Assembly (NCBI GenBank): GCA_964553245.1
Contig: CAZKJM010000001.1
Location: 81,806-145,805 of the forward strand
Reading direction: 5' to 3'
Source of the DNA: an uncultured Gammaproteobacteria bacterium
Lineage (GTDB): Bacteria; Patescibacteriota; Microgenomatia; Levybacterales; UBA12049
DNA length: 64,000 bases
Shown here: positions 34,018-57,277 of the stretch, piece by piece
Position numbering within the stretch: the first letter of the stretch is position 1
How the letters are laid out: each line of letters starts with the position of its first letter
Notes under the pieces: generated by a model
The model's database searches: none
Seen by the model: the letters and a program-made list of their open reading frames with translations, nothing else
Told to the model about the DNA's origin: nothing
Position numbers and translations under genes: made by a program

Positions 34018-34021
34018 TTTA

Positions 34022-34801: not shown

Positions 34802-34831
34802 TTTATTTTACCGTATTATATAACGAAATTA

Positions 34832-35821: not shown

Positions 35822-36711
35822 TTTTCGACCTTCCTAATCCTGCTAATAGCAAAATAATCATCTTTTATAAGAAACTGTTTACTTATTATTGATTTATTAT
35901 TTTTTAAATGTTGGTATAATTTTAAGATTCCCTCTTCATATGAATAAAACTTCAATAGCGGCATTTCATTTCTTAATCTAGAATTATCTCCCGTGTATTG
36001 ATAGTTCAATCCTTTATTGACGACTGTTATTTCTGAATTCTTTCTTGAAATTTTATTTATTATTTTTACTATCTCTACCAAGCTTATGGATGTATCAGGT
36101 GTAACATTATAATCAGAGTACGTCACATTTGCCTTAAGAAAGAAATCTAAAACCTTTATCAAATCATCTATAAATAAATAGTCGAAAACCACATCTTGCT
36201 TTATAGATATCGGTAGATTAAAAATATTCTTCGCAACTGAATTTGATATAAATTTTTTTAAATAGTCTTCTCCCGGTCCATATATCCCAAAAAGCCTTAA
36301 GTTGGTAATATTTTTTACCTTACTCCCTTTTTCTTGTATTAAAAACTTCGCAAACCCATATGAATCCTGTGGCACATATTTTCCCCAATCTGTTTCTTTT
36401 ACTTTAACTAAGTTCCTGTTTTTCGCATATTCTGCTCCTGAACCAAAGTGAATTATCTTCTTAACAACATCTGAATTTCTAAAGATACTTTCAAACATTC
36501 TTAAATTATCTTCAAAACCCTCTGACCCATTAACTATTGCAGAATGTATAATCGCATCTATCTTTTTTAATTTTAAATATTTTCTTAACAATAGTTCATC
36601 TTTAATATCCAATTCATTATGAGAGGGTGAAAAAAGAATGTGTTTTTTCTTCAACTTCGATATAATATTCTTGCCTATAAAACCTCTTCCTCCTGTTATT
36701 AAAATTTTCAT
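35818..36711 (-). CDS. NAD-dependent epimerase/dehydratase or reductase
   Basis: MKILITGGRGFIGKNII. 297 aa. Confidence 0.6.
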   Translation of the reverse strand: MKILITGGRGFIGKNIISKLKKKHILFSPSHNELDIKDELLLRKYLKLKKIDAIIHSAIVNGSEGFEDNLRMFESIFRNSDVVKKIIHFGSGAEYAKNRNLVKVKETDWGKYVPQDSYGFAKFLIQEKGSKVKNITNLRLFGIYGPGEDYLKKFISNSVAKNIFNLPISIKQDVVFDYLFIDDLIKVLDFFLKANVTYSDYNVTPDTSISLVEIVKIINKISRKNSEITVVNKGLNYQYTGDNSRLRNEMPLLKFYSYEEGILKLYQHLKNNKSIISKQFLIKDDYFAISRIRKVEK

Positions 36712-38497: not shown

Positions 38498-39414
38498 TGT
38501 TTAATACTTTTTAAAATGGAACTCTCAATTTGATCAATTGATAATTCATTAACTTTTCTCATATACTCTTGTGAACCGATGCTTCTAGTAAAATGGTCTC
38601 TTACTCCTAGTCTTCGAAAGGGAATCTTTATTAAGTTTTCTGCAAGTACTTCAGCAACTAGACTTCCTAATCCTCCTGTTAAAAAATGTTCTTCAAGTGT
38701 AAAAATTCCTCCAGTCTTTTTTGCTGATTCCACAATAATATCAATATCTAAAGGTTTAATCGTATGCATACTAATAAGCCTTGAGGCAATATTTTTTTTA
38801 TCTAATTTCTCGCATACTTCAAGACCAGTACTTAACATACTACCAGTGGTTATCAGAGTAACATCTTTTCCTTCTCGTATAAGGCGACCTTTTCCCATCT
38901 TAAGGGAAAAATTTTTATTCCAGGTAATTTTTTTATCCAATCTTCCTAATCTAATATATACAGGTCCCTTTATCTTTATTGCTTCTTTTGTAACAAATCC
39001 AACCTCCATAGAATCTGCTGGGGAAAAAATTGTCATATTGGGGAGCGTTCTTAAAATGCCAATATCTTCGAGGGCATGATGAGTATGTCCATATGGACCA
39101 TATGTGAATCCTGCTCCCATTCCAACAATTTTTACGTTTAGATTTTGGTAGCAAATATCATTTCTTATTTGTTCAAAATTCCTCATTGTACAAAATGGAA
39201 TTATTGAATAAATGATAGGAATTTTATCTTCAATTGCCATACCCGCTGCAACTCCTGTCATATTCTGCTCTGCAATTCCTGCATTTAAATATTGTTTAGG
39301 AAATTGATTAATAAAACTTTCAAAAACTGAAAATCCTAAATCACCTGTTAATAAATGAATTTTACAATTTTTCTTTGCTAACTCTTCTAATGTTTTTATA
39401 AAAGTTGTTCTCAT
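38494..39414 (-). CDS. split transketolase, C-terminal (pyrimidine-binding plus C-terminal domain) subunit
   Basis: 306 aa resembling TktB-type subunits (LTGDLGFSVFESF...AEQNMTGVAAGMA...). It is adjacent to the N-terminal subunit gene. Confidence 0.75.
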   Translation of the reverse strand: MRTTFIKTLEELAKKNCKIHLLTGDLGFSVFESFINQFPKQYLNAGIAEQNMTGVAAGMAIEDKIPIIYSIIPFCTMRNFEQIRNDICYQNLNVKIVGMGAGFTYGPYGHTHHALEDIGILRTLPNMTIFSPADSMEVGFVTKEAIKIKGPVYIRLGRLDKKITWNKNFSLKMGKGRLIREGKDVTLITTGSMLSTGLEVCEKLDKKNIASRLISMHTIKPLDIDIIVESAKKTGGIFTLEEHFLTGGLGSLVAEVLAENLIKIPFRRLGVRDHFTRSIGSQEYMRKVNELSIDQIESSILKSIKQ

Positions 39415-40223
39415 TCTATTATTTTAAGTTTTCTTAAATTATCCTCTGTAATTGACTTATAATGCGATTCAACAGTTGCCTCATTCTCAATAACTCCACC
39501 TTTTCCTTTAATCGTATGTGCTATTAAAACAGAAGGCTTATCTTTTTCAAACGGTAAATTTTCAAGAGATGAGATAATTTCCTCAATATTATGACCATTA
39601 GCTTCCTTTGTTGCCCATCCAAAACATTCCCATTTTTTTGCAAAAGGTTCAAGATTTAAAACCTCATTCGTTGCCCCAAAGCCCTGAAAACCATTGTAGT
39701 CAATTATTGCAATTAAATTATCAAGCTTATGATGTCCCGAGAAAAGGATTGCTTCCCAAACAGATCCCTCATCGCATTCGCCATCGGAAAGAAGAACGAA
39801 TACTTTATGCTTTTTTTTGTCAAGTTTGCCTACGTATGCCATTCCTGCAGCCATAGACAATCCATGTCCCAGTGATCCGGCTGAAACCTCTACGCCAGGA
39901 ACGCAATTTCTGGTTGAGTGACCAGGTAATTTTCCTCCATCTTTTTCATAACTTTTAAGGATCTCTTTATTAAAAAAACCTCTCTCTGCTAAAACAGCAT
40001 AAAGTGCCTTTACATCATGTGCCTTGCTTAGAATTAGCCTATCTCTGTTTACGTTGTTTGGGTCATTTGGGAAAATGTTTAATATTTTAAAGTATAAAGA
40101 AACTAAAATTTCTACGCTTGATAAAGAACCTCCAACATGTGCGCTTTTAGCACGATAGCTCATGAGCAGAATTTCCTTTCTTACATTTTCGCAGATTTTT
40201 AAAAGCTTTCTGTCTTCAGGCAT
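39411..40223 (-). CDS. split transketolase, N-terminal (TPP-binding) subunit
   Basis: 270 aa with SAHVGGSLSSVEILVSLYF...GSLGHGLSMAAGMA...LLSDGECDEG. Confidence 0.75.
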   Translation of the reverse strand: MPEDRKLLKICENVRKEILLMSYRAKSAHVGGSLSSVEILVSLYFKILNIFPNDPNNVNRDRLILSKAHDVKALYAVLAERGFFNKEILKSYEKDGGKLPGHSTRNCVPGVEVSAGSLGHGLSMAAGMAYVGKLDKKKHKVFVLLSDGECDEGSVWEAILFSGHHKLDNLIAIIDYNGFQGFGATNEVLNLEPFAKKWECFGWATKEANGHNIEEIISSLENLPFEKDKPSVLIAHTIKGKGGVIENEATVESHYKSITEDNLRKLKIIE

Positions 40224-40239: not shown

Positions 40240-42324
40240 TTATTTTACTGATTCGTAAAGAGATATTGTATTAAATGAATTTTTATTAATTTGCTTGTAT
40301 TTCTCTTCTATTATCTTTTCGATTTCCGGAGTTAAAAACTCATATTCCCCAACATGATATATTTTTGTTACAAAAACTTTATATTTTTTATTATCTCTTA
40401 AAAATTTAATTAGCCTATCTACATCCTCTTTTAAGAAAAGCTCCATTAATCCTGGTGAATCAAAAGCAGAAACTGTATCAGATTCTGCATAATATACACT
40501 TGGAAAACTAGAAATTATAATAATTTTTTCCTTTTTGTTTGTATGTTTTTTAATAAAATTTATCTCTGATATTATCTCTCTTGAATTATCTGGATCGTTA
40601 GTTAATTTTTTAAAAATATATTTAACATTGTTTACATTTCCCACTGAAAAATTGGTAAAATTTTCAACCCAATAAGGTAGATACGATAACATAAATAAAA
40701 ATAAAATAATAAAAAAGATAAAGTTGTGATAAAGTTTTAACCCATACTTTTTATAAAAATAAAATAGGTCATCGGTATATATAATTAATAAAAGCACAAA
40801 GCTATACATCGGCCCCCACAAATTTGAATCAACACTCCTTCCTTGGTAAAAAGAAAACGTTCCCAAACCAAGAATTGATAATAAAAATATAATGACTGGT
40901 CGGTCTTTGTTATCGCATTTTTCTATAAACGCTTGTATTGAATATATCAAACCTATTATATATGTAATAAAAACGATATTCCACGGATGAATAAGCTTCA
41001 TTTTTATCATATTAAATCCCATTAGATAATAATGGGTCTGGGATTTAAGGAATAAATTTAAATCTGGAAATATTCCTCTTGTTATGAAAATATACAAGGA
41101 ATAAATAATCAATAATGCTAAAAAGATAAATATAATTTTTACAAAATGTTTAAATATTTCTTTTATCGCCGACCTAAAGCCGGATCGAAAAATTTCGTAA
41201 TATGAAATTGAAGCTAACCATGTAATAAAAATGATTATTCCGGTATCTGCATTCCATAAAACGGAAGCTGAGGCAACTATTGAGTTAATATAATAAGTTA
41301 AGCTACTTTTATTTTTAAAATATAAATATGAAATAAATATAAACAATGAAGGGAAAAAAATCCTAATAGGCACAAACTGAAAATAAGGATCATTTTGAAA
41401 ACCTGGCAGTATATATCCACCAGCCATAAAATAAAAAATAAAATAAAAAGATATACCAATAAAACTTATAAATCTATTTTTAATAAAATATTTAATAAAC
41501 AAAGAAATTATCGTTATGGATACTCCTGAAAGGAATGCCATAATAACCGTAAATTTAAAAACACTAATTCCACCTGTCAACTTAAATAATGGCTCAAGAA
41601 AATGAGGATATAACCCGTATAGATTTATAAAATTATTAGTGAGTAAAGCTTTACCCGCATAAGACTGAGACACGGAATAAAAAACAGTTTCTAAATTATG
41701 CGCTCTTTCGTAATTTGATATTCCTGTTACAATTAAATCTTCTACATCGAAAATTTTTTGTGAAAAGATAGAAAAAAATATTATAAATATTAATCCTTTA
41801 AATAAATAATTTGTAATTTTTGTTGACAATCGGATTTTTTTTATTATTTTAATTTTTAAAAAAACAAAAGCTGTTAGTAATGTAATGGAAAAGTATAAAA
41901 GGGGATATTTGTAAGCATAGCTGTTTTTAATGTAGTCATTAAATTCTTTAAAATCATAATAAATTAAAAGTAACGTTACCACTAAGCTTAATAAAAAAGA
42001 AAGTAAATATAAATAACTTATTCTTTTTTTTATTTTATTTAAAACTTTTTTAAAAATATAAAAAGATAAATATGAAAAAATAGGTAATAGAAATATTGAT
42101 GATATATATTGAATCCTCTCTATAGGTTCAGGGGAAAAATAAATTCTATCTCTAACTGACAGCCTAATTGAAGAATTAATTATTTCTTGCACATTTGGAT
42201 CGTAGTATTTTCGAATTATAAATATTGTTATTAACAATAATATAATTGTAAGTAAAGTACTAAAAAAGAAAACTATAAAACGTTTGTACTCAGAAGTTAA
42301 TAAAATATCTTTTTTGCTAGACAC
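40240..42324 (-). CDS. polytopic membrane protein of unknown function (694 aa; many TM helices, C-terminal soluble domain)
   Basis: Hydrophobicity pattern only. It could be a polymerase or GT-C-like protein, but no motif was recognized. Confidence 0.4.
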   Translation of the reverse strand: MSSKKDILLTSEYKRFIVFFFSTLLTIILLLITIFIIRKYYDPNVQEIINSSIRLSVRDRIYFSPEPIERIQYISSIFLLPIFSYLSFYIFKKVLNKIKKRISYLYLLSFLLSLVVTLLLIYYDFKEFNDYIKNSYAYKYPLLYFSITLLTAFVFLKIKIIKKIRLSTKITNYLFKGLIFIIFFSIFSQKIFDVEDLIVTGISNYERAHNLETVFYSVSQSYAGKALLTNNFINLYGLYPHFLEPLFKLTGGISVFKFTVIMAFLSGVSITIISLFIKYFIKNRFISFIGISFYFIFYFMAGGYILPGFQNDPYFQFVPIRIFFPSLFIFISYLYFKNKSSLTYYINSIVASASVLWNADTGIIIFITWLASISYYEIFRSGFRSAIKEIFKHFVKIIFIFLALLIIYSLYIFITRGIFPDLNLFLKSQTHYYLMGFNMIKMKLIHPWNIVFITYIIGLIYSIQAFIEKCDNKDRPVIIFLLSILGLGTFSFYQGRSVDSNLWGPMYSFVLLLIIYTDDLFYFYKKYGLKLYHNFIFFIILFLFMLSYLPYWVENFTNFSVGNVNNVKYIFKKLTNDPDNSREIISEINFIKKHTNKKEKIIIISSFPSVYYAESDTVSAFDSPGLMELFLKEDVDRLIKFLRDNKKYKVFVTKIYHVGEYEFLTPEIEKIIEEKYKQINKNSFNTISLYESVK

Positions 42325-43477: not shown

Positions 43478-45220
43478 ATGATAAGACTATTTATTAATTT
43501 TTTCAATAACAAAAATGTGTTACGGGTATTCATTACAACTATTATTGGTTTAATACTATCTATTATTGTTAAAGAATATGGAACACTTCATTTTACAGGA
43601 ATGGATTATGGGGTACTTACGAGCGCTGCTTATCAATATTTCTTGGGATATAAACCTTATTCAGACATAATAACTGGTACACCACCTGTATATTTAATAT
43701 TAGGAAAAATATCCTTCGACCTGTTTGGAGTAAAATTTGCTTCCTTTGTATACATTACTGCAATTGTAACATTTTTCACATTCTTGTATTTGGTCTGGGT
43801 TTGGTACAAAATCTCTAATTCGTTAATCAAATCATTGATCTATTCTTTAACAGCTGAAATTGTAATAATTTTTACTTTTTCAACAATTAATTATAATCGA
43901 TTTTCGCTTATTTCAGCAACGATGTATATTTTAACCCTCATTTACTTTATAAAACAAAAAAGGCAATTATTTTCATCATTTTTATTAATAATTCAAGGAG
44001 CAATATTGCTTTTAGTGAAAGCTAATATTGCAGTTTCATTAATTCTTTTCTCTTTTATAATTTTAATTAGACTCAATAACAAAATAAAAACTTTAATAAT
44101 TTATACAACATCTTTCTTAGTATTCTTATTATTACTATCTTTTTCTAATATAAATATTTTTAATTTAATTAAAAATTATTTATGGCATGGGGGAAGAGCT
44201 TTTGATCCAAGCGTCTGGAAGATATTTATCTTAAATGGATGGGAAGTAAAACAAACATTTATTTTTTTTACTCCAATTACGGTAATTTTATTAATCTCAC
44301 TAATCGCAGTTGTAATAAATAAGTCAATCTTTAAAAAATGTAATTTACAGTTTGTATATTTTCAAATAATTTTATTGTCAGTTTTAATAGGAATAATCGG
44401 TCTTATAACAAATAACGATCTTAATTTTGTCGATGGTTTTCTAATACTTAATGGCATAATTTTAATACCCATAATTTACAAAAATATTCTCCAGAATACT
44501 AACATCTATAAAATTTATAATATCGTAATCTATGCTACATGCAGTTTTCTAATTATATACGGATTAATTATAGGAATTAATAGAGTTAATATTTCTGAGG
44601 GAGGACCAAGCTTCTTCTATGAATATGCTTATTATCCAAGCGAAAAATGCTTATTTTTATCTGATACTAAATGTCGACAACTCATCATAGGATCTACTGC
44701 AAAATTATTAAATTTAAATGTTCAAGACACAGGAAATTTTAGATACTTAGTTAAATCTAAATACTCTTTTTTTAATTCTATGCTTATTGAGCAAAATTTA
44801 GAAGAAACAGAAGATGAAATAAATAAGGTAATATTATTTTTTAAAAAAAATGGTGTAAATAAAGATAAAATAGGCTTTGGTCCAAGGATTGATTTTAATT
44901 ATGCAACTTTTAAAATTAAACCTCCTAAAGGTCCGCTATGGTGGGAAGCATTTAGTTATGTAAAACCAGATGAAAAGTTAATATCTATGGTTCAAAAATA
45001 CAGAAATAATAATAAATTGATTTTTATTCATCTAAAACAAATTTATCAATTTTATCCTCCTTTATTATATGGTGGATATATAATTAGCGAACATGATCTA
45101 GTTCAAACAAGCATGTTAGATATCTGGTTTAACAAGCAAGATAAGCAAACACAAAAAATAAAAGAAGCTTATAAAAAAATGCTAAAAGATGAAGGTATTG
45201 AATATATCGAATCCGAATAG
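43478..45220 (+). CDS. polytopic membrane protein, GT-C-like (first loop HFTGMDYGVL...TPPVYLIL), C-terminal soluble domain
   Basis: 580 aa with about 12 TM helices, on the plus strand. Confidence 0.45.
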   Translation: MIRLFINFFNNKNVLRVFITTIIGLILSIIVKEYGTLHFTGMDYGVLTSAAYQYFLGYKPYSDIITGTPPVYLILGKISFDLFGVKFASFVYITAIVTFFTFLYLVWVWYKISNSLIKSLIYSLTAEIVIIFTFSTINYNRFSLISATMYILTLIYFIKQKRQLFSSFLLIIQGAILLLVKANIAVSLILFSFIILIRLNNKIKTLIIYTTSFLVFLLLLSFSNINIFNLIKNYLWHGGRAFDPSVWKIFILNGWEVKQTFIFFTPITVILLISLIAVVINKSIFKKCNLQFVYFQIILLSVLIGIIGLITNNDLNFVDGFLILNGIILIPIIYKNILQNTNIYKIYNIVIYATCSFLIIYGLIIGINRVNISEGGPSFFYEYAYYPSEKCLFLSDTKCRQLIIGSTAKLLNLNVQDTGNFRYLVKSKYSFFNSMLIEQNLEETEDEINKVILFFKKNGVNKDKIGFGPRIDFNYATFKIKPPKGPLWWEAFSYVKPDEKLISMVQKYRNNNKLIFIHLKQIYQFYPPLLYGGYIISEHDLVQTSMLDIWFNKQDKQTQKIKEAYKKMLKDEGIEYIESE

Positions 45221-45221
45221 A

Positions 45222-45926
45222 CTAATCTGCAAATTTTATTTTTAGCAATCCTACTCCATTGCTTAACGCGATAGATGGTATTTTTTTAAAATGATAAACC
45301 TGCGTTTGTCCATCAATTCTATTTCTGTGATTTATCTGTATTTCATTTAATTCAATATTTCTTTTAATGCAAGTAGCAACGAATCCCCACCAAAAACCTT
45401 CCCTCATTCTATTTAGTAATTTTAAATGAGGAAGAATTTTTGTTTTTTTAAATAAAACAAAAGGTGCACTCGGATCATGAATTGTGCATTTGAATAAAAG
45501 CTTTAACAACAAAAAGAAAGATTTTGAATATAAAATTCGACTTCTTGAATCAGATCTATTAACTCTCCAACCAATTAAAACTTTATTTTTATCTCTTTTT
45601 TTCCAAAACTTTATTACATCCTTTGCGTCGCATTGACCGTCTGAATCAATACAGAGTACGTATTCAGAATTTGATAATTTAATTCCATCTATTACTGCTG
45701 GTCCGTATCCTCTTCTATATGGTTTTTGACTTAAAATTATCGGGTATTGATTTTTTATTTTTGACAATAGTTCCTTAGTCCCATCAGTTGATCCATCCTC
45801 GCAAATAATAAAATTATGAGATATTTTTGTTTTTTTTAAAACTTTTTCCCATTCATTTAGCACCTTTTTTATAGATTTTTTTTCATTATAAACAGGTAAG
45901 ATAATATCTATATTTTTTCTTTTCAT
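45222..45926 (-). CDS. glycosyltransferase family 2, DPM1/GtrB-like polyprenyl-phosphate sugar synthase-like (no C-terminal TM helices)
   Basis: IDIILPVYNEKKSIKKVL...FIICEDGSTDGT...IDSDGQCD. 234 aa. Confidence 0.65.
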   Translation of the reverse strand: MKRKNIDIILPVYNEKKSIKKVLNEWEKVLKKTKISHNFIICEDGSTDGTKELLSKIKNQYPIILSQKPYRRGYGPAVIDGIKLSNSEYVLCIDSDGQCDAKDVIKFWKKRDKNKVLIGWRVNRSDSRSRILYSKSFFLLLKLLFKCTIHDPSAPFVLFKKTKILPHLKLLNRMREGFWWGFVATCIKRNIELNEIQINHRNRIDGQTQVYHFKKIPSIALSNGVGLLKIKFAD

Positions 45927-46879
45927 TTAATAAAATTATACCAATTATTTACAAACTTTATAGTATTGGAAAATGTAAAATTATTTTTCCAGCCTAGTTT
46001 TTTTATTTTATTATCGTTAAGGTGTTGATACGGAATTTCATTTTTTGCGTTATTTATAATTTTATACTTAATTTTTGTTTTCAATACTTTCTCTGTTTTT
46101 TTTATTAATTCTAAAACAGATAATGTATCTTTTGATGAAAAATTAAATGCTTCTCCTCTTGTTTTTTCAAAATTTTTTAATAAAAAAATATACCCATCGA
46201 CCACATCCTTAACATACAAATAATCTCTTACGTATGAACCATCGCTTCTTATTTCTAGGATTTTATCTTCCGCTATTGCCTTGCAAATTCCAGGAATTAT
46301 TCTATTGAAGTATAAATCACCCTCTCCATAAACATTTCCAAAACGAGTAATAACAATTGGAAGATTATATGTTTTTATGTAAGTTTGGCAGATTAAGTCC
46401 ATGCATGATTTAGATACATCATAAGGATGATCTCCTTTTAGAGGAAACTCTTCTGTGTATTTTTTAATTGTTTTTCCATAAGCTTTATCGGACGAAGCAA
46501 CAATCATTCCTTTTATTTTTTTATTTTTTCTTAATTCTTCCAAGAGGTTTATTGTCCCATTAATATTTGTCTCAAATGCATCAACTGGATTTTCATATGC
46601 TTTTTCTACAATTGGCTCTGCTGCTAAATGAAAAATATATTCCGGAGTGTATTTTTTAAAAAAATTACCTAGCTTTTTTTTATCTCTTATGTCGATAATT
46701 TTCAAATCTACTTTATTTTTAAGTTTATTTAAAACAAACGTTGACTTTGGATTAACTTTTATATCTATAATAGTTACTTTTACTCCCAATTTTAGCAGCT
46801 CTTCTACTAAATGTCCTCCAATAAATCCCGTACCTCCTGTAACTAAAATTTTCTTTTTTGTTATTTCCATACTTTCCAT
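45923..46879 (-). CDS. CDP-glucose 4,6-dehydratase-like (RfbG/DdhB-type extended SDR)
   Basis: ILVTGGTGFIGGHL...ASSDKAYG...HPYDVSKSCMDL fits the CDP-glucose 4,6-dehydratase pattern (SDKxY, PYxxSKxC). It is translationally coupled to the downstream rfbF. Confidence 0.6.
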   Translation of the reverse strand: MESMEITKKKILVTGGTGFIGGHLVEELLKLGVKVTIIDIKVNPKSTFVLNKLKNKVDLKIIDIRDKKKLGNFFKKYTPEYIFHLAAEPIVEKAYENPVDAFETNINGTINLLEELRKNKKIKGMIVASSDKAYGKTIKKYTEEFPLKGDHPYDVSKSCMDLICQTYIKTYNLPIVITRFGNVYGEGDLYFNRIIPGICKAIAEDKILEIRSDGSYVRDYLYVKDVVDGYIFLLKNFEKTRGEAFNFSSKDTLSVLELIKKTEKVLKTKIKYKIINNAKNEIPYQHLNDNKIKKLGWKNNFTFSNTIKFVNNWYNFIK

Positions 46880-47637
46880 TTTAGACTATCACTCCAAATC
46901 TTATTTAAACTCTCCACATCCGGATAGGTATCCATAGAATGCCAAAACCCATCATGCAAAAAGACTGACAATTGATTTTCCTTAACCAATCTCTTTAATC
47001 CCTCGTGCTCCATTTCTCCCGGTTTAATGTAATCAAAAAAATTGCGTTTAAAAATCATAAATCCACCATTCGTTCTATCTTGTAGCACGGGTTTCTCAAT
47101 AAAACTTTCTGCCTTAAAGTTTTTGTTAATTTTTAAAAGTCCATACTTACTTCTTGGATGTACCCCCGTAACTGTTCCTATTGTTTTTTGTTTTTTATGA
47201 AACGAGATCAATTCCTTTATATTTATGTCTGAAACACCATCTCCATAGGTAACCATAAAATCCGTATCCTCTTTTGGAATATAATTTTTAACTTTTAAAA
47301 TTCTTTCTCCTGGTAAAGTTTCTTCCCCCGTATCAACAAACGTAATCTTAAAATCATCTGCTTTAATACTGCCCTTTTTATGAATTTTTGTAAAACCTGA
47401 TTTTGTATGGAGGGTAAAATTATGTTGAAGCTCTCTCTGGTTTAAGAAATATCGTTTTATATAGTCACCTTTATAACCCAAGGCTATAATAAAATCATTA
47501 AAGCCATAATGGGCATAAATTTTCATTATGTGCCATAAAATTGGTTTTCCACCAATATTTACCATTGGTTTTGGCTTAAATTCGGTTTCTTCTTTTAACC
47601 TATAACCTAATCCACCACAAAGAATTACAGTTTTCAT
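46861..47637 (-). CDS. rfbF: glucose-1-phosphate cytidylyltransferase
   Basis: MKTVILCGGLGYRLKEETEFKPKPMVNIGGKPILWHIMKIYAHYGFNDFIIALGYKG is near-collinear with RfbF/DdhA. 258 aa. Confidence 0.88.
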   Translation of the reverse strand: MKTVILCGGLGYRLKEETEFKPKPMVNIGGKPILWHIMKIYAHYGFNDFIIALGYKGDYIKRYFLNQRELQHNFTLHTKSGFTKIHKKGSIKADDFKITFVDTGEETLPGERILKVKNYIPKEDTDFMVTYGDGVSDINIKELISFHKKQKTIGTVTGVHPRSKYGLLKINKNFKAESFIEKPVLQDRTNGGFMIFKRNFFDYIKPGEMEHEGLKRLVKENQLSVFLHDGFWHSMDTYPDVESLNKIWSDSLKWKVWK

Positions 47638-48668
47638 ATTTTTCCTTTTAATTTAAGCTTTATTAAATAAATAGCTGTAAACCTAGTATAATATATCAGA
47701 AACAACCAACAAGCAAGTGGATGAATAAACCAGGAAACGTCTTTAATTCTTAAAAATCCTTTTATGCTTCTATACAATGGCTCAACGATTGTTACGGTAA
47801 ATAAAATATATTTTACAAGATTCTTCTTGTCAACTGATGAACTTAAATCAAGCACAGAATATCTCCGTACCAACGCATATTCAGATAATGAAAATCTTTT
47901 TAGATAGAGCACTCTTCTTTTTACCAAATCGATCAGACTATTGCCTATTACGTGATTTATTTGAGTCGATTTAACAACGCCAAATCTTTTATATCCAATT
48001 TTAAGAAGATCTACATAAACGTCAATATGTAAGTAATTTTTGGGCGATGTTTTTGCTTTAAGTAAAATTTCTCTTTTTGTTAAAAAACCATTATCACCAA
48101 CTGTTGGAAGATTTTTAGTATTAAATTCTACAACATCATATTCTTTTCCTATTTTTATTATTTTTCCTTTTTTATATTGTTTATTTACCCACCATTCTCT
48201 ATCTGCTTTTCCTAAATAAAATACCAAAGGATCACTTACGCCAAAAAGAGCACAATACCTATCAATTACACTCATTTTTTTGTTATAGCCATAATGATGA
48301 GTATATGTAGCGATTATTTGATTATCTTCCATAAAAGGCTTAATCAAGTTAAAAAGAGTATTCTTGCTCGGTAAAATATTATCGGATTCTAAACAAAAAA
48401 CTATTTGATTTTTCGCTTTTTTTAAAGCATATGATCTCCTTGCTTCGCTTTGATCTCTAAGATTTTTCATTACTAAGACTTTACATTTATATTTTTTCAT
48501 TAATTCTAGAGCCTGCTTAGAAGATCCTCCGTCAACAACAATATGTTCAATTTTATTCTTGGGATAATCTTGTTTTTTTATTGATCTTAGAACATTTTCA
48601 AAAATAGAAAGATTAGGATTATAAGTAATAGTTAAAATGGAAATTGAAGGGTATTTTATTTTTTTCAT
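47634..48668 (-). CDS. glycosyltransferase family 2 (GT-A)
   Basis: SILTITYNPNLSIFENVLRSIKKQDYPKNKIEHIVVDGGSS. 344 aa. Confidence 0.7.
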   Translation of the reverse strand: MKKIKYPSISILTITYNPNLSIFENVLRSIKKQDYPKNKIEHIVVDGGSSKQALELMKKYKCKVLVMKNLRDQSEARRSYALKKAKNQIVFCLESDNILPSKNTLFNLIKPFMEDNQIIATYTHHYGYNKKMSVIDRYCALFGVSDPLVFYLGKADREWWVNKQYKKGKIIKIGKEYDVVEFNTKNLPTVGDNGFLTKREILLKAKTSPKNYLHIDVYVDLLKIGYKRFGVVKSTQINHVIGNSLIDLVKRRVLYLKRFSLSEYALVRRYSVLDLSSSVDKKNLVKYILFTVTIVEPLYRSIKGFLRIKDVSWFIHPLACWLFLIYYTRFTAIYLIKLKLKGKI

Positions 48669-48699
48669 TTTTTTATTTTAACATATTTATTGTTATATC

Positions 48700-49950
48700 T
48701 TGATAAACAGAAAACTAAAACCTATAATAAGATGTATGACAAAAATTAAGAAACCGCTCAGAATTACCTACGGACTTTCCGTATATGACAACAAGGAAAT
48801 ATTAAGGGTAACTAATGTTTTAAAAGAACACCGCTCCAACATGGGAATAGAAACAAAGCAATTTGAAAAAAGTGTGGCAAAATATTTTGGTAAAAGATAC
48901 GGAATTATGGTTAATTCAGGATCATCCGCAAACCTCTTAGCGCTAGAGCTTTTAAACTTGCCTGAAGGATCCGAGGTAATTACTCCTTTATTAACTTTTT
49001 CAACAACAGTAGCTCCAATCATTCAAAAAAAACTTACTCCTGTTTTTATAGACGTTGAAGAAGGAAAATATATTATCGATGTTAACAAAATCGAAAAAGC
49101 AATTACAAAAAAAACAAAATTGTTAATGATTCCCAATCTTTTCGGAAATATTCCAAATTTAGAAAAATTGGAAAAAATAGCTAAGAAACATAATTTATAT
49201 TATATTGAAGATTCTTGCGATACCTTAGGTGCAAGATTTAACAAAAAACCCAGCGGAAGTTATTCCGATATTTCAACTACAAGTTTTTTTGGCTCGCATA
49301 TTATAACAGCCGGTGGAAATGGCGGAATGATAATGGTAAACAAAGAAGAATGGAGGGATAAATTAAAGGTTCTAAGAGGATGGGGAAGAAGTTCTTCTTT
49401 ATTTAGTGAATCAGAAGACATTAAAGAAAGATTTAAGAAGAAGATAGACGGGATACCATACGATGCAAAATTTATTTTTGAAGAGATTGGATACAATTTT
49501 TTACCAGTAGAAATGTGTTCTGCTTTTGGCAATGAGCAAATTAAAAAACTTCCAATATTCAGAAAAACAAGAGAAAAAAATTTTAAAGTATTAAGAAAAT
49601 TTTTCGAAAAATATGAAAAGTATTTTATACTTCCAATTCAGGAAAAAAATGTTCAAACCCAATGGCTTGCTTTCCCACTTACTATAAAAGGGAATGCGCC
49701 ATTTACAAGACTTGAAATAACAACATTTTTAGAAAAAAACAATGTGCAAACAAGACCTATTTTTACAGGAAACATTCTAAAACAACCAGGATTTAAAAAC
49801 ATTAACAGAAAAGTATTGGATAAAAAATATTCTGTTGTTGATGAAATTATGGAAAGAGGATTTGTTGTTGGTTGTCATCATGGACTAGAAAGTAGACATA
49901 TAAAAACATTAACCTCATTGTTTGAAACTTTTTTAAACAAATTCAACTAA
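48700..49950 (+). CDS. PMP-dependent nucleotide-sugar 3-dehydrase of the DegT/DnrJ/EryC1 fold (E1/RfbH/DdhC- or ColD-like)
   Basis: GIMVNSGSSANLLALELL fold-type-I motif. At the position of the Schiff-base lysine the sequence reads SFFGSHIITAGGNGGMI, where His replaces Lys. This is the hallmark of E1 and ColD 3-dehydrases, not of aminotransferases. 416 aa. Confidence 0.65.
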   Translation: MINRKLKPIIRCMTKIKKPLRITYGLSVYDNKEILRVTNVLKEHRSNMGIETKQFEKSVAKYFGKRYGIMVNSGSSANLLALELLNLPEGSEVITPLLTFSTTVAPIIQKKLTPVFIDVEEGKYIIDVNKIEKAITKKTKLLMIPNLFGNIPNLEKLEKIAKKHNLYYIEDSCDTLGARFNKKPSGSYSDISTTSFFGSHIITAGGNGGMIMVNKEEWRDKLKVLRGWGRSSSLFSESEDIKERFKKKIDGIPYDAKFIFEEIGYNFLPVEMCSAFGNEQIKKLPIFRKTREKNFKVLRKFFEKYEKYFILPIQEKNVQTQWLAFPLTIKGNAPFTRLEITTFLEKNNVQTRPIFTGNILKQPGFKNINRKVLDKKYSVVDEIMERGFVVGCHHGLESRHIKTLTSLFETFLNKFN

Positions 49951-49957: not shown

Positions 49958-51289
49958 CTATTGCTCATTATAATTTAAAATCGTCCAATTGGTTAAAAAC
50001 AAAATTAAAATAAGCATCGAAAAAGCAATTATATTAGATGTTTTTTTTGCTCTTGGAAAAAAAATAGGCAGCAAAGTTAGGCTCGTTGTAAAAATAAATA
50101 TCCTTAAGATTGAATATGAAAAACCAAACGATTGCGCAAATGATAATTGAAACATCGATAAACTAGTGACTATTAGATAAATAAAAGTTAATAAATAATC
50201 CTTTACAAAATAATCTTTTAAGAATAAAGCAATTGAAATAATTAAAAATGGATAAAATGGATATCTATACCAACCATGCCCAGGTTCATTTGGAATAGCA
50301 AAAACGAACATTAAAAAATATGCCAAGAACGGAAAAACTACAAAATAATTTTTTTTAAGATCTTTTGTAAATAAAATAAACATTGCTACCCACCCAAAAT
50401 ATATCCATCCGTCTATCAAAAATCTATCCACTAGATATGGAGATGTAAATAATGCAAACACACTATTAAAGGCCATGTCATATCTATTAAGTTGAAATTG
50501 CCAGAGGTTTATAAAAAGATCCCAATTATAATAAGCTCCATAAACTAAATATAATAACGAAATCGATATCACTATCATTAAAAATTTATATATATCTTTA
50601 TATTTCTTTAAAAAAAGAAGTATAAAAAAAGCAGCAAAGGAAGCAGCAACCCATGGAACTTTTGCCAAAATCAGTAATCCGCAAATTACCGCAGCGATGT
50701 TTCTAAAAATAGTTTTTTTAGTTTTTACAAATTTAGATATTAAAAATAACGACAAAAGAAAAAATGGAATAAAAAAATTTTCGTTTTGAACAATCCTTGA
50801 ACCAACCGCAATTGTTGGGACAATTGAATAAATAAAAGCTGAGAGTAATCCAATTTTGTATCCATAAATTTCCGAAGCAAAAAGATAGATTATAAATATC
50901 GAGAGAATACCTAAAATTAATGAAAGTCCCCTGACATGATTCACTGTCAAGTCGCTCATGTTATGTACTCCATTAAAAATTGCATATGATCCAGCAACTA
51001 ACCCAAACAATGGCGGGTGTTCAAGATATGGCGTTACTAACCTAAAGTGAACCTTGTTATAAAAAACATCCTTTGCATTTTTATATTGAGGATGAGGTGA
51101 CCATGATATTGGCGCTCCAGATTGAATAAGATTCATTCCCTGCCATGTCCATGCATATTCATCAAAAGTTGCACCGGTTCTCGGCCAAGTATATAGATCA
51201 TGACTTCTAAGTAGGTACCCAAGAACAATTACTAGGATTAGTAATAAATATTTAAACTTATATAAGTTTTTAACGTTTATAAAGTTCAT
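49958..51289 (-). CDS. PMT/ArnT-like GT-C glycosyltransferase (GT39/GT83-type)
   Basis: After TM1 the loop carries TFDEYAWTWQGMNL...YLEHPPLFGLVAG, i.e. the DE motif and the HPPLG motif diagnostic of Dol-P/Und-P-sugar-dependent PMT/ArnT enzymes. 443 aa with about 11 TM helices. Confidence 0.7.
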   Translation of the reverse strand: MNFINVKNLYKFKYLLLILVIVLGYLLRSHDLYTWPRTGATFDEYAWTWQGMNLIQSGAPISWSPHPQYKNAKDVFYNKVHFRLVTPYLEHPPLFGLVAGSYAIFNGVHNMSDLTVNHVRGLSLILGILSIFIIYLFASEIYGYKIGLLSAFIYSIVPTIAVGSRIVQNENFFIPFFLLSLFLISKFVKTKKTIFRNIAAVICGLLILAKVPWVAASFAAFFILLFLKKYKDIYKFLMIVISISLLYLVYGAYYNWDLFINLWQFQLNRYDMAFNSVFALFTSPYLVDRFLIDGWIYFGWVAMFILFTKDLKKNYFVVFPFLAYFLMFVFAIPNEPGHGWYRYPFYPFLIISIALFLKDYFVKDYLLTFIYLIVTSLSMFQLSFAQSFGFSYSILRIFIFTTSLTLLPIFFPRAKKTSNIIAFSMLILILFLTNWTILNYNEQ

Positions 51290-52398: not shown

Positions 52399-53135
52399 TT
52401 CTTGTCGTAATAATGTAAAAATCGTAATCTATAAAAAACAGCAGCCGTATCCCAAAGCATCCAAAAAATTATTCTCCAAAAGTTTGAAGATGTAATACTA
52501 CTTGCTTTATTAAAATTAAGCTTTACTGGTGCTTCGTATATTTTTTTATATCCAAGTTTATTTGCAACAGTTAAGACTTCTATATCAAACGCAAAACGCT
52601 TAATAATGATTTTTGAAAAGATTTCCTTTGCTGCCTTTTTTTTAAATATTTTTAAACCTACTTGTGTATCCCTAACTTTAAACCCGAATAAGATATGAGT
52701 AAGTGTTCTGTACCCCCATGAGAGAACCTTTCTCCAAAAAGGATAATTAACCTTTGATTCAGGATGAAGCTTACTTCCAATAACGATATCTGCCTTGTTC
52801 CATTCCATAATATCAAGCATTATAGAAATCTCCGTCGGGTCTAAATCCATTCCTGCATCTATAAATCCTACAATTTCTTTACTTGCTTTTTTAATTCCAT
52901 ATTTAATCGCAAAACCTTTTCCCATGTTTTTTTGGTATCCTAGTACTTTTAAATTATCCAATTTTACCGTTCTTGCCTTTTCATAAGTATTGTCATTAAA
53001 TCCATCAACAACAAGAATAATTTCATAATTTGGGGTTAATTTTAATAATGCGCTATTTAATATTTTTATTTGTTTTACGATTGTTTTTTCTTCTTTATAG
53101 GCAGGAACTATTAAGGAGATTGATTTTTGAATCAT
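52395..53135 (-). CDS. glycosyltransferase family 2, DPM1/GtrB-like polyprenyl-phosphate sugar synthase-like
   Basis: ISLIVPAYKEEKTIVKQI...YEIILVVDGFNDNT...IDAGMDLD. 246 aa. Confidence 0.65.
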   Translation of the reverse strand: MIQKSISLIVPAYKEEKTIVKQIKILNSALLKLTPNYEIILVVDGFNDNTYEKARTVKLDNLKVLGYQKNMGKGFAIKYGIKKASKEIVGFIDAGMDLDPTEISIMLDIMEWNKADIVIGSKLHPESKVNYPFWRKVLSWGYRTLTHILFGFKVRDTQVGLKIFKKKAAKEIFSKIIIKRFAFDIEVLTVANKLGYKKIYEAPVKLNFNKASSITSSNFWRIIFWMLWDTAAVFYRLRFLHYYDKK

Positions 53136-53689
53136 AACTCATTTTTTAATGATAGGGCTTTTCTAACTAAATCCCATGAAAATGGAGTACCATCTTCTAT
53201 TCTTACATCAGCTTTTTCAAACGGCATTCTTCCTTCTTCCTCCGGGTTATATAAAGCTGTTGGAAAATTAATTAAAATAGCAGGCTCTTTTGAACTTACA
53301 AAAAATGCATGAAAAGTATTTTTGGGAATTAATAATAAATATGGATCCTCTAATGCATTAACTCTAAATAGATTAATGACATCTTTTGTTTCTGAATTTT
53401 CTCTTTTATCTGCTATTGCAATAATTACCTCACCTTGAATTACTCCCATTCTATCCTCTTGAACTGTTGGGTGAAAATGCCACACATCCTCATCTCTTGC
53501 AAGTCCTGGAGGAGTAATCGAATAATACTGCATTGAAAATTCCCTACCGGAACCATAAATATCTTCCCAATTAGTTTTTAATGTCTCAACTAACACGCCA
53601 GATTCATCTTTATTAACCTTAAGTGGATGCATTACCACGTCTTTTATTATTTTAAAATCATTTTTGTTTTTTAAATTAATAAATTCCAT
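53132..53689 (-). CDS. RmlC-like cupin: nucleotide-4-keto-6-deoxy-sugar 3,5-(or 5-)epimerase or ketoisomerase
   Basis: 185 aa. ...DESGVLVETL...WHFHPTVQEDRMGVIQGEVIIAIADKR...LLLIPKNTFHAFF matches the RmlC/AscE-like fold pattern. Confidence 0.5.
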   Translation of the reverse strand: MEFINLKNKNDFKIIKDVVMHPLKVNKDESGVLVETLKTNWEDIYGSGREFSMQYYSITPPGLARDEDVWHFHPTVQEDRMGVIQGEVIIAIADKRENSETKDVINLFRVNALEDPYLLLIPKNTFHAFFVSSKEPAILINFPTALYNPEEEGRMPFEKADVRIEDGTPFSWDLVRKALSLKNEL

Positions 53690-55045: not shown

Positions 55046-56090
55046 AAACTACTTTTTTGTAAACATCTATTGTCTTGTCTGCTGTGTCTTTCCAGGAAAA
55101 ATTTTTAGAATTCTCTTTTCCTTTTCTGGAAAGCTCTTCTTGAATTTTTATATCATTAAATACTTTAATAATACCTTCTGCAATTTCGTCTTCGTCATAT
55201 GCATTTACATAATACGCAGCATTATTTGAGACTTCATCTAAAGATCCCTCTTTAGAACAAATTACAGGAAGACCAGATGCCATTGCCTCCAAGACCGGTA
55301 GACCAAAGCCTTCATAAAGAGATGGCATTGTAAAAACAGTTGCAATCTTATAAAGCTGAGTCAATTCCTCAGATGAAACAAATCCAAGACTTATTATATT
55401 TTTGTTTTCGCTTGCTAATTTCTGAACCGCAACTAAATCCTTATTCCAAGGATTTTTTTTATCATAATTTTTTGATGTTAAAGCTTGTCCAATCATAACC
55501 AATGGAACATTTGCTTTCTTAACTGCACTTAGAAGCCTAGGTAAATTTTTATTCCATGTAACATCTCCAACATATAAAACAAATTTTTCTGGTAATTTGT
55601 GTTTCTCTCTGATTTTTGTAATTAATTTTTCATTCCTTTTAGAATTAACAAACTCTTCTGCTGCTGCTAGATAGACCGTATTAACTTTTTTCTGATCAAT
55701 ATTTACATATTTTAGAATATCTTTTTTGGAAGAATTAGAATCGGTAATAATTGCATCTGTTTTTGCAAGAGATTGCTTTTGCATCTGCCACCTAAACCAT
55801 CCCTTAATTCCCTTAGGAAATTCCTTCGGAAAAACAATTGGAGTTAAATCATGAACTGTAACAATTGATTTAAATTTACTATATATGGGTTTTGCTAAAA
55901 AAAATGGCTCAAAATAAGGAAAATGTATCAAATCCACATCGTTGGGTATTTTTTCTCCTCGAGTAAAAAATGTATATGAAAATTCTGGATGATAATTTAA
56001 CAAAGACTTTTTTAAATTCTCTAAATAAAAACCTACTCCCCTTACCCTGTGTCCTGTATGAAGTGGGGATATATCTATTGCTATCTTCAT
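55035..56090 (-). CDS. glycosyltransferase family 4 (GT-B)
   Basis: EGFGLPVLEAMASGLPVICSK. 351 aa. Confidence 0.8.
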   Translation of the reverse strand: MKIAIDISPLHTGHRVRGVGFYLENLKKSLLNYHPEFSYTFFTRGEKIPNDVDLIHFPYFEPFFLAKPIYSKFKSIVTVHDLTPIVFPKEFPKGIKGWFRWQMQKQSLAKTDAIITDSNSSKKDILKYVNIDQKKVNTVYLAAAEEFVNSKRNEKLITKIREKHKLPEKFVLYVGDVTWNKNLPRLLSAVKKANVPLVMIGQALTSKNYDKKNPWNKDLVAVQKLASENKNIISLGFVSSEELTQLYKIATVFTMPSLYEGFGLPVLEAMASGLPVICSKEGSLDEVSNNAAYYVNAYDEDEIAEGIIKVFNDIKIQEELSRKGKENSKNFSWKDTADKTIDVYKKVVYER

Positions 56091-57277
56091 CTACTTTTTC
56101 CTTTATTCTTAAAATAAAAAATGTATGCTTTTTGAAAAAAGGATATTGCTAGTATATAAAAGAAAGGAATGATTGTTAAGAAATAATTAGTTGAAGAATA
56201 ACCAGTTGATAAAGTCAAAGTATAAACAATAAGCCAAATAAACAAAAACTTTTCTGGATTATTAAGCTTTAATTTTTTCATTAAAAAGTAGACGCCATAA
56301 ATAATGGTAAAAATAACTGAAACTGGCCAAGTAATCATCCATTGAGGATCCTTAATTATTGCATTATTTCCCCACCAAGTGTGCCATCTATTAAAAAGCA
56401 ATAAATCCCAAAAAGAAAACGGAAGAATGAATTTAGACTTGTGATAAGCGAGAATATATTTTTGTATTCCAAAGATTTGAATAATTGAATACCCATCCAT
56501 AATTGTTCTTGTATATGATGCAATTAAGACAAATAATGACAAAGGTAAAGTTATCATAAAAATTCCAAGCTTTTTGCTTAATCCTCTTTTTTCAATAAGT
56601 AAGTATAAAACCATGCAAAAAGTAATTACCGTTCCAGTAACAAAAAATCTTATACTAATAACGCAGCCTAAGAAAAATGAAGTTAGGATAAACCACTTTA
56701 AATATTTTTTATCATCTGCTGCTTTTATAAAAAAATAGAAGGAAAAAAGAATAAACGGGAACTGGATCGGCTCGACCAATGGGATATATTTTAATTTATT
56801 CAAAAATATTGGCTCATTAATAAATATTCCAACTGGTATTAATGAAATTAAAGAATTATTTGTTGCTTGTTTTGTTATAAGAAATATTCCAAGTGTTGAA
56901 AATGCTAAAAGTAAAACTACTATTGTACGTGGATTATCAAATAGAAAAATTGAAAGAGAAATTATGTAATTTCCAAGCGGTGGATGGTCATGAGTTATCA
57001 TTATTGGATTAAGTCCTTTTAAAAAAGCCCCACCTGCAAACGATCTAAATGTCTCATCAGTAATTATTACTGGATTTTTCTTTTGAACAAACTGTGAAGT
57101 GTAATACAGCTTTTTATAATTCTCGTATTGACTATCAAACCCTGGAGAAAAAAGATAATCAGAACTATTTGCTATAATCTCAATTGGTTTTACTAAAATT
57201 ATTAAAAGTAAAAATATAAAAATTAATTTATATCTTTTTTTTATAAATGATTCAAATACAGAAAATGCCTTTTTCAT
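56087..57277 (-). CDS. PMT/ArnT-like GT-C glycosyltransferase (GT39/GT83-type)
   Basis: Loop motif IITDETFRSFAGGAFLKGLNPIMITHDHPPLGNYI (DE and HPPLG motifs). 396 aa with about 10 TM helices. Confidence 0.65.
   Translation of the reverse strand: MKKAFSVFESFIKKRYKLIFIFLLLIILVKPIEIIANSSDYLFSPGFDSQYENYKKLYYTSQFVQKKNPVIITDETFRSFAGGAFLKGLNPIMITHDHPPLGNYIISLSIFLFDNPRTIVVLLLAFSTLGIFLITKQATNNSLISLIPVGIFINEPIFLNKLKYIPLVEPIQFPFILFSFYFFIKAADDKKYLKWFILTSFFLGCVISIRFFVTGTVITFCMVLYLLIEKRGLSKKLGIFMITLPLSLFVLIASYTRTIMDGYSIIQIFGIQKYILAYHKSKFILPFSFWDLLLFNRWHTWWGNNAIIKDPQWMITWPVSVIFTIIYGVYFLMKKLKLNNPEKFLFIWLIVYTLTLSTGYSSTNYFLTIIPFFYILAISFFQKAYIFYFKNKGKSR

Follow-up and report, generated by a model that had tools for sequence, protein, structure and literature searches.

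A putative E1-lineage sugar 3-dehydratase without [2Fe-2S] ligands in a predicted CDP-deoxysugar module of a probable Patescibacteria bacterium

Introduction

Deoxygenation of sugars at C-3 has two textbook solutions: the E1/E3 pair acts on CDP-sugars by radical iron-sulfur (Fe-S) chemistry, and ColD acts on GDP-sugars by a hydrolytic, transaminating route. Why the two routes differ, and which of them came first, is still debated in the literature. We describe here a putative sugar 3-dehydratase dependent on pyridoxamine 5'-phosphate (PMP), together with its gene cluster, on contig CAZKJM010000001.1 of assembly GCA_964553245.1. The window analysed is a 64-kb stretch (64,000 nucleotides, positions 81,806 to 145,805) of this ~562-kb contig, and the host is probably a small-genome bacterium of the Patescibacteria (candidate phyla radiation, CPR), to judge from two source names among the database matches, GC content and contig size.

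In both known routes a glucoseen adduct has to be completed. In E1/E3 and in SpnQ this is achieved by two one-electron reductions via an enzyme-bound [2Fe-2S] cluster, while in ColD hydrolysis to pyridoxal 5'-phosphate (PLP) and an enamine is followed by tautomerization and loss of ammonia, and PMP is regenerated with glutamate (PMC8987622; PMC10440746). The E1/E3 pair is hard to reconstitute in vitro (PMC7851689). Its product, CDP-4-keto-3,6-dideoxy-D-glucose, is the acceptor to which YerE-like enzymes add acyl branches (PMC12247030; PMC9306805).

The 3-dehydratase gene of the window lies close to genes for an RfbF-type glucose-1-phosphate cytidylyltransferase and a CDP-glucose 4,6-dehydratase-type short-chain dehydrogenase/reductase (SDR), and the three products may constitute a CDP-4-keto-3,6-dideoxyhexose module. 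That all parts of this proposal hold jointly, namely a CDP-sugar substrate, 3-dehydration, and ColD-type turnover without a reductase, we judge from the sequences to be probable, if only just.

Results and discussion

The catalytic histidine is present and three of four cluster ligands are missing

The 3-dehydratase has a DegT fold (PF01041, 260.8 bits) and matched the NCBIfam RfbH model NF011936 with 346.3 bits, under the equivalog cut-off of 423. Its best match in the PDB was E1 (3BCX; 1e-68, 235 bits, 32-33% identity), followed by ColD (1.5e-53, 185 bits); entry 9WVY, a 'putative NDP-4-keto-6-deoxyglucose-3-dehydratase', matched at 138 bits. An AlphaFold2 (AF2) model with a predicted local distance difference test score (pLDDT) of 85 gave Foldseek template-modelling (TM) scores of 0.86 to 3BCX and 0.81 to ColD. 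Confidence in this model was low at residues 217-224 and 246-254, which affects the former cluster loop.

All elements described in the initial annotation of this region were found again, among them a His in place of the PLP-binding Lys (GSHII). His188 aligned with E1 His220 and with ColD His188 (FFGSHIITAG in the window protein over FYPAHHITMG in E1). In this column 3BB8, the entry for the H220K mutant of E1, carries Lys, which fixes the position. E1 residues C193, H220, C251, C253 and C261 were numbered from the alignment and confirmed. About four Cys had been counted in the protein; the 404-amino-acid (aa) version has three.

The same annotation had left two alternatives, a ColD-like mechanism independent of E3 or an E3 encoded elsewhere, and had suggested inspection of the Fe-S cysteine motif, which does separate the two. 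Within the E1 motif C193-x57-C251-x1-C253-x7-C261, only the equivalent of C193 (Cys161) is kept, and the other columns hold Ser, Leu and Ile. The E1 cluster loop, WGRDCYCAPGCDNTCKKRF, aligned to WGRSSSLFSESE-DIKERF in the window protein. Because three of the cluster Cys are missing, an E3 encoded elsewhere would find no cluster to reduce, and the ColD-like, E3-independent reading is favoured. A canonical E1/E3 system with its E3 gene elsewhere in the genome is accordingly very improbable: 64 kb of the ~562-kb contig were examined, which leaves room for such a gene, but the equivalents of Cys251, Cys253 and Cys261 that would make up an E1-type cluster are gone, and no E3 was seen in seven related loci (one of them partly scanned).

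The enzyme falls in a large clade apart from E1 and ColD

Homologues were collected as the best 120 database clusters (close homologues) and, more widely, as the best 150 representatives of clusters formed at 50% identity. The 120 close homologues are 66-84% identical to the 3-dehydratase; across many metagenome-assembled genomes (MAGs) identity is 65-84%, with a mean column identity of 75%. The few named ones come from Patescibacteria or Levybacteria MAGs. His occupied the PLP-lysine column in all 120 close homologues and all 150 representatives. The cluster loop was free of Cys in every one of the 120, while among the 150 representatives it held at least three Cys in 50 and none in 89.

A neighbour-joining (NJ) tree was built from 129 sequences (123 representatives and 6 close homologues), with E1 and ColD added as references. 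This tree, which is distance-based and carries no support values, showed three main groups. The query fell in a clade of 43 sequences that are all Fe-S-less, while 40 sequences with the Cys motif grouped with E1 and 17 grouped with ColD; small clusters of either kind were scattered over the rest of the tree. Immediately before the His, 37 of the 43 query-clade sequences and all 17 of the ColD clade have Ser, and 36 of the 40 in the E1 clade have Ala. At the C193 column, Cys was found in 40/40 sequences of the E1 clade and in 33/43 of the query clade, the remaining 10 of which have Ala. By these comparisons the query clade is a large, uncharacterised, Fe-S-less group of E1 lineage, found in CDP-sugar neighbourhoods and standing apart from the E1 and ColD clades.

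3,6-Dideoxyhexoses had been thought unusual for this kind of organism; the 3-dehydratase family is in fact common in Patescibacteria metagenomes, so that its presence is not genomically unusual. With a family this abundant, the interest lies in mechanism, evolution and practical enzyme use. In the literature, of which coverage was incomplete, no paper was found on such an enzyme or on CDP-dideoxy sugars in Patescibacteria.

A GCHHG motif (Cys380, His381 and His382) is clade-specific and was highly conserved in an alignment of 41 sequences. Two of the 120 close homologues have Val in place of Cys380, and other representatives without the Fe-S motif show Ala, Leu, Ile or Val in this column. Cys161 and the GCHHG motif were considered as a possible alternative metal site; this is unlikely, since both Cys positions vary in the family.

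Eight fusion proteins of the query clade were scanned. They were either joined to 4,6-dehydratase-like SDR, RmlC or RmlD domains or intein-bearing, and Pfam detected no ferredoxin-NADP reductase (FNR) or ferredoxin domain in these eight, which are metagenomic calls and may include artefacts. Fe-S-bearing homologues of 700-770 aa were considered as E3-E1 fusions, and this was rejected when Pfam showed the extra domain to be an RmlD-like SDR.

Several homologues of 658-698 aa (P0128, P0145, P0182, P0196 and P0251) matched the query in two pieces. The split, near residues 157-159, adjoins a conserved EDSCD motif, and the ~250-aa insert of P0128 matched the Hint_2 and Intein_splicing models. The insert beside the presumed cofactor-binding Asp is probably an intein, present in both Fe-S-less and Fe-S-bearing members.

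RfbF and the SDR are divergent members of CDP-glucose families

On the minus strand, four genes overlap end to end in the order GT2-rfbF-SDR-GT2 (45222-48668), where GT2 denotes a family 2 glycosyltransferase. Between the end of rfbF and the beginning of the SDR gene there is an overlap of 19 nucleotides (nt; ...ATGGAAAGTATGGAAATAA), in keeping with the translational coupling proposed earlier for this pair, and the remaining junctions are 4-nt overlaps. The 3-dehydratase gene is divergent, as had been reported, but it is the first GT2 of the block, across a gap of 67 bp, that it faces; this gene intervenes between the 3-dehydratase gene and the rfbF-SDR pair and extends the unit to four genes.

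RfbF scored 272.9 bits against TIGR02623 (1-257 of 255 profile positions), with the next family at 82 bits, and its residues 2-258 are collinear with residues 4-259 of Salmonella RfbF (PDB 1TZF; E 3.4e-59). The full-length alignment upholds the near-collinearity with DdhA/RfbF noted initially, the margin over the next family is wide, and the enzyme is predicted to make CDP-D-glucose.

For the SDR, TIGR02622 (CDP-glucose 4,6-dehydratase) gave 215.9 bits and the dTDP type 171, and the best PDB match was the Yersinia CDP-glucose 4,6-dehydratase 1RKX, compared with which the SDR is ~40 aa shorter; its description as CDP-glucose 4,6-dehydratase-like thus stands. The motifs SSDKAYG and PYDVSKSC align with those of 1RKX (SSDKAY over TSDKCY, PYDVSK over PYSNSK), the Tyr-x3-Lys is kept, and the first motif has Asp-Lys in both the SDR and 1RKX, where the aligned dTDP enzyme has Asp-Glu. 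The catalytic roles assigned to these motifs are those of the Yersinia enzyme.

As contrary outcomes the initial annotation had named a Lys at the Schiff-base position, or a dehydratase and a cytidylyltransferase of other families. What was found instead was a His in that column, a CDP-type SDR and an RfbF-like cytidylyltransferase. RfbF and the SDR, like the 3-dehydratase, scored under their NCBIfam equivalog cut-offs (300.25 and 278.45 respectively), and by this measure all three are divergent members of their families.

These scores (272.9/300, 215.9/278 and 346/423) would also fit a module that acts on another nucleotide sugar, with the RfbF-like protein and the SDR as divergent paralogues in a deoxysugar route that does not start from CDP-glucose. 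The SDR is, moreover, fairly similar to a dTDP-glucose dehydratase (123.7 bits) and to CDP-tyvelose 2-epimerase (116.2 bits) in the PDB. We nevertheless regard such a route as quite unlikely, because the full length of RfbF aligns collinearly with 1TZF and no other nucleotidyltransferase family comes near, the SDR has Asp-Lys and not the Asp-Glu of the aligned dTDP enzyme, and every locus examined keeps the three genes as neighbours.

Search for an E3 reductase in the window and in related loci

The initial annotation reported no gene for E3 (DdhD) in the window, and two scans gave the same result. FAD_binding_6, NAD_binding_1 and Fer2 were absent from the Pfam matches of the called genes (window 1-60.5 kb), and a six-frame scan of the 64-kb window revealed no plant-type 2Fe-2S, 4Fe-4S or FNR motifs. 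The last two open reading frames (ORFs) of the window had no NCBIfam match.

Seven related loci with a close homologue were compared (L004 and L084-L089); for L004 the ORFs of at least 150 aa were listed, and part of these were scanned. An rfbF-like gene (257-259 aa) and an SDR gene (315-365 aa) lie less than 10 kb from the 3-dehydratase homologue in all seven, and neither the called genes of L084-L089 nor the scanned ORFs of L004 showed an E3-like gene. In L004, L084, L085, L086, L088 and L089 a GT2 of 330-345 aa adjoins either the 3-dehydratase gene or the rfbF gene that goes with it. A single-protein scan of genome contigs yielded mostly distant DegT aminotransferases, the useful loci being L004 (67% identity) and L019 (35%, Fe-S-bearing). 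In L019, from a Kineothrix MAG, an rfbF-like gene is directly followed by an Fe-S-bearing E1 homologue (WGRDCVCASGQDNLCGHRF), and the ORFs scanned over ~15 kb of this locus included no E3. The same L019 cluster also contains a radical SAM/SPASM gene; these features of L019 lie at 2820-4953 and 9385-10788.

Absence of E3 nearby is not diagnostic when taken alone, as the Fe-S-bearing E1 homologue of L019 and SpnQ (PMC8987622) are also without it, and for this reason the argument for E3 independence rests on the missing cluster ligands. The same two cases, SpnQ running on general reductases without a dedicated E3 (PMC8987622) and L019 showing no neighbouring E3 among its scanned ORFs, speak for a reductive route of the E1/SpnQ type, in which unconventional cluster or redox ligands, or direct electron transfer, would be served by general ferredoxin/flavodoxin reductases encoded outside the window. 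That the protein is nearer E1 than ColD, that it keeps the C193 equivalent and that the GCHHG motif is highly conserved could be read in the same way. None of the close homologues, however, retains more than one of the four cluster Cys, and the only two conserved Cys are both replaceable (the C193 equivalent by Ala in 10/43, Cys380 by Val in 2/120). No redox domain was present in the scanned clade fusions, and no ferredoxin or FNR motif in the window. On this evidence a reductive route is unlikely.

A proposed ColD-type cycle on an E1-type substrate

The substrate, chemistry, cofactor cycle and product fate of the proposed module are those that we infer from the observed sequence features, clade placement and gene neighbourhoods; the module would serve a very large surface-glycan locus. 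RfbF would convert glucose-1-phosphate to CDP-D-glucose, from which the overlapping SDR, with its Asp-Lys and Tyr-x3-Lys catalytic set, would produce CDP-4-keto-6-deoxy-D-glucose. This would form a ketimine at C4 on the 404-aa PMP enzyme, with His188 taking the C4' proton and the C3 hydroxyl being expelled. The resulting delta-3,4-glucoseen adduct would be hydrolysed in the manner of ColD to the 3-deoxy-4-keto sugar and ammonia, and PLP would be returned to PMP by transamination with glutamate, so that E3, NADH and an iron-sulfur cluster would not be involved. Since the protein has neither a cluster site nor a partner, and shows the same Ser-His pair as ColD-clade enzymes, the hydrolysis/glutamate route appears the better supported way of completing the adduct.

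Several points weigh against this proposal. Overall, the 3-dehydratase is nearer E1 than ColD (235 versus 185 bits; TM 0.86 versus 0.81), and the characterised ColD-type enzymes are all users of GDP-sugars. Substrate identity is not guaranteed when all three core enzymes score under their equivalog cut-offs, and reductases may be encoded elsewhere on the contig, of which the window covers only 64 kb. Finally, within the incomplete coverage of the literature no assayed member of the query clade was found.

Conversion of ColD to an aminotransferase reportedly needed both S187N and H188K, the double mutant of PDB entry 3GR9. The query shares its Ser-His pair with the entire ColD clade, which argues against other PMP chemistry such as a C4 transamination to a CDP-4-amino-4,6-dideoxyhexose. 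SpnQ does transaminate with PLP and glutamate when no reductase is supplied; a review reports no such transferase activity of ColD or E1 in comparable conditions (PMC8987622). In several related loci an N-acetyltransferase adjoins the pathway genes, which speaks for this chemistry, but the same loci have a canonical DegT aminotransferase (369-372 aa) as a gene of its own, and the YerE-like enzymes of the neighbourhood require a 3-deoxy-4-keto acceptor (PMC9306805). We consider such alternative PMP chemistry in vivo to be improbable.

Set against the described systems, the window protein has its best sequence and fold match in E1 of Yersinia pseudotuberculosis (CDP-6-deoxy-L-threo-D-glycero-4-hexulose-3-dehydrase; AscC/DdhC/RfbH), with which it shares the His in place of the PLP-binding Lys, the RfbF and CDP-glucose 4,6-dehydratase-type SDR nearby and, presumably, the substrate CDP-4-keto-6-deoxy-D-glucose. 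It differs from E1 in lacking three of the four [2Fe-2S] Cys, in having Ser-His and not Ala-His, and a single His where E1 has His-His, as well as in its score under the RfbH cut-off, its separate clade and the lack of an E3 in the neighbourhood searched. With ColD (GDP-4-keto-6-deoxy-D-mannose-3-dehydratase of Escherichia coli O55, 2GMS) and the GDP-heptose C3-dehydratases of Campylobacter jejuni it shares the absence of an Fe-S motif, the Ser-His pair and the absence of a reductase partner. Unlike ColD, it belongs to the clade of 43 and not that of 17, its sequence match to ColD is the lower one (1.5e-53), and its neighbours are RfbF and a CDP-type dehydratase and not Gmd, ColC or other enzymes of GDP-mannose or GDP-heptose, the only ManC-like gene being ~40 kb away. 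It resembles SpnQ, the dTDP-4-keto-2,6-dideoxyglucose 3-dehydrase of spinosyn, as an E1-family enzyme without a dedicated E3 gene (PMC8987622); SpnQ, however, keeps the [2Fe-2S] motif and needs ferredoxin/flavodoxin reductase pairs, whereas the window protein is without the motif. From these comparisons the 3-dehydratase most likely functions in the manner of ColD while looking most like E1, and it departs from the defining feature of each.

An E1-lineage clade that lies in CDP-glucose neighbourhoods and carries the ColD cofactor signature offers a direct test of whether deoxygenation of an E1 substrate is possible with no reductase. If the proposed cycle is correct, the enzyme would also be a simple, oxygen-tolerant source of CDP-4-keto-3,6-dideoxyglucose, an acceptor wanted for YerE-type carboligases.

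Neighbouring genes and the possible fate of the product

The features of the window are collected in Table 1. The product of the 3-dehydratase would be either reduced and epimerized to a 3,6-dideoxyhexose, or branched at C4 by a YerE-like enzyme dependent on thiamine diphosphate (ThDP) together with a reductase.

Table 1. Features of the window that bear on the putative CDP-deoxysugar module and its surroundings (positions in the 64-kb window).
Feature	Position	Strand	Evidence or remark
Large ORFs without family match	13587-16769, 22112-24154, 24471-27893, 40240-42324, 43478-45220, 60569-63787		Pfam, NCBIfam
SDR, 297 aa, candidate YerF-like side-chain reductase	35818-36711	-	PF01370/PF04321; adjoins ThDP gene
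YerE-like ThDP-dependent carboligase, 593 aa	36716-38497	-	JanthE 8RPH best in PDB; candidate enzyme acting on the 4-keto-3,6-dideoxy product
Split transketolase (N 39411-40223, C 38494-39414)	38494-40223	-	Transketolase_N, Transket_pyr/Transketolase_C; upstream of and overlapping ThDP gene
SDR, GDP-mannose 3,5-epimerase / GDP-fucose synthase type, 356 aa	42377-43447	-	PDB 2C5E, 3.2e-36
Short GT2, 234 aa	45222-45926	-	Weak NCBIfam matches; start overlaps SDR stop
CDP-glucose 4,6-dehydratase-type extended SDR, 318 aa	45923-46879	-	TIGR02622; 1RKX
rfbF-type glucose-1-phosphate cytidylyltransferase, 258 aa	46861-47637	-	TIGR02623; collinear with 1TZF
GT2 glycosyltransferase, 344 aa, first gene of block	47634-48668	-	PF00535, 49.6 bits; stop overlaps rfbF start
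Promoter-like site TTGATA-17-TATAAT	48700-48728	+	11/12 consensus matches; ends 8 nt before ATG 48736
Putative Fe-S-less PMP-dependent sugar 3-dehydratase, E1 lineage, 404 aa	48736-49950	+	RfbH model, PDB, AF2
His188 codon, replacing PLP-binding Lys; Ser187 precedes	49297-49299	+	SFFGSHIITAG
Cys-free loop WGRSSSLFSESEDIKERF in place of E1 cluster loop	49381-49434	+	Alignment to E1
RmlC-like cupin, 185 aa, candidate sugar epimerase	53132-53689	-	PF00908; weak rmlC match, 32 bits; PDB RmlC ~2e-5

The ThDP enzyme of the window matched JanthE (8RPH) with 368 bits, compared with 237 for acetohydroxyacid synthase (AHAS) and only 236 for PpYerE, and it carries the canonical GDG motif, unlike JanthE, which has CDG. 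JanthE is a ketone-accepting YerE-like enzyme whose native substrate is unknown (PMC12188165). Although the ThDP/SDR pair lies ~10 kb from the 3-dehydratase module, an orthologous pair (4033-6727; identities 44% and 42%) is present in L087, whose 3-dehydratase is 77% identical. There the ThDP enzyme, the SDR, an HpcH/HpaI aldolase and a methyltransferase share a strand block with the rfbF-dehydratase genes, beside the 3-dehydratase gene, and it is from this arrangement that we infer the link between pair and module in the window. Since the acceptor of YerE-like enzymes is CDP-4-keto-3,6-dideoxy-D-glucose, such a pathway would require a working 3-dehydratase.

As judged from its genes, the L087 arrangement matches the published logic of YerE clusters (PMC9306805; PMC12247030). 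Like the yersiniose, erwiniose and caryophyllose clusters, which combine ddhA-D with YerE-like and YerF-like enzymes and an aldolase, the window has rfbF, dehydratase and 3-dehydratase genes and a YerE-like/SDR pair, to which L087 adds the HpcH/HpaI aldolase and the methyltransferase on the same strand block (PMC9306805; PMC12247030). Those acyl-branched sugar clusters were described in Proteobacteria, Mycobacterium and a spirochaete, whereas the host here is probably a CPR bacterium; in the window, unlike in those clusters, the 3-dehydratase carries no Fe-S motif, there is no E3, and the ThDP gene has a split transketolase next to it.

This transketolase matched a split-chain transketolase in the PDB (6YAK, 1.3e-66) and is 67% identical to the one encoded beside the 3-dehydratase gene in L086 (11202-12916). 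In L089 (6542-8931) the N part is fused to an acetyltransferase and shares a strand block with rfbF, the dehydratase and a DegT aminotransferase. A role in sugar branching has been suggested for split transketolases, until now in Streptomyces alone (PMC12247030), and C-branching by the split transketolase may also be envisaged here.

Together these genes suggest a pathway for acyl-branched 3,6-dideoxy sugars in CPR bacteria. The 3,6-dideoxyhexose end product of the initial annotation is affected accordingly: the CDP-sugar 3-deoxygenation module is supported, while its end product may be a C-branched sugar. A more specific and more tentative idea, which we hold to be possible though not probable, is that E1 and ColD are bridged by the Patescibacteria clade as a natural intermediate, which runs a redox-neutral, glutamate-driven ColD cycle on the E1 substrate and feeds YerE-like C-branching. 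If this were so, ultra-small CPR bacteria would build acyl-branched 3,6-dideoxyhexoses on their surface without an iron-sulfur or flavin electron chain. In either case the genes point to 3,6-dideoxy or C-branched sugars in CPR surface glycans.

Two further genes could act on the 4-keto product. The 356-aa SDR, which also matched GDP-fucose synthase in the PDB (~8e-24) and the NCBIfam GDP-L-fucose synthase model (137 bits), is a candidate 5-epimerase/4-reductase, by its family likeness. The second encodes the RmlC-like cupin, homologues of which occur in L084, L087 and L088.

Start of the 3-dehydratase gene

The DegT-fold protein was initially described as 416 aa long. The fold assignment holds, but that length counts from a TTG at 48700, and the start is most likely the ATG at 48736, which agrees with the 100% identical gene call P0001 in the database (404 aa) and with where homologous proteins begin. 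The TTG at 48700 belongs to the opening hexamer of the promoter-like site in Table 1. In the 5-kb region 30 such sites were found where 28.4 were expected, which is no excess and makes the site at 48700 weak evidence; promoter and terminator scans likewise showed no overall enrichment. Given the position of the site, the 3-dehydratase mRNA could possibly be leaderless or near-leaderless.

Other features of the window

The window has a GC content of ~29%, and its minus strand carries nearly all genes. Taken as a whole it forms a single glycan locus, in which numerous GT2, GT4 and GT-C (PMT_2) glycosyltransferase genes are accompanied by flippase, GalE and nonulosonic-acid genes. No Pfam or NCBIfam match was obtained for seven large ORFs of 505 to 1140 aa, some of which are clearly membrane proteins. 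ORFs of similar size without a Pfam match were seen in L086 (694 and 1131 aa) and L089 (808, 1193 and 677 aa), a likeness of size only.

The short GT2 at the end of the four-gene block gave weak NCBIfam matches to PgfS, ArnC-type, AglJ, PpgS and dolichyl-phosphate hexose transferase models, and by this resemblance it may act as a polyprenyl-phosphate sugar synthase. Four GT-C genes of the PMT_2 type (12149-13618, 49958-51289, 56087-57277 and 58275-60572) were present, one of them fused to a GT2 domain. These genes and the short GT2 suggest the use of lipid-linked donors for sugar addition outside the membrane.

A second sugar pathway lies on the minus strand at 28894-35821. It includes a NeuB-like synthase, a NeuC-like 2-epimerase, an SDR of the PseB/Polysacc_synt_2 type and another SDR, together with an FkbM-type methyltransferase, a PtmA-like SDR (PRK09186, 232.6 bits) and a GFO/IDH/MocA oxidoreductase, and looks like a route to a modified nonulosonic acid.

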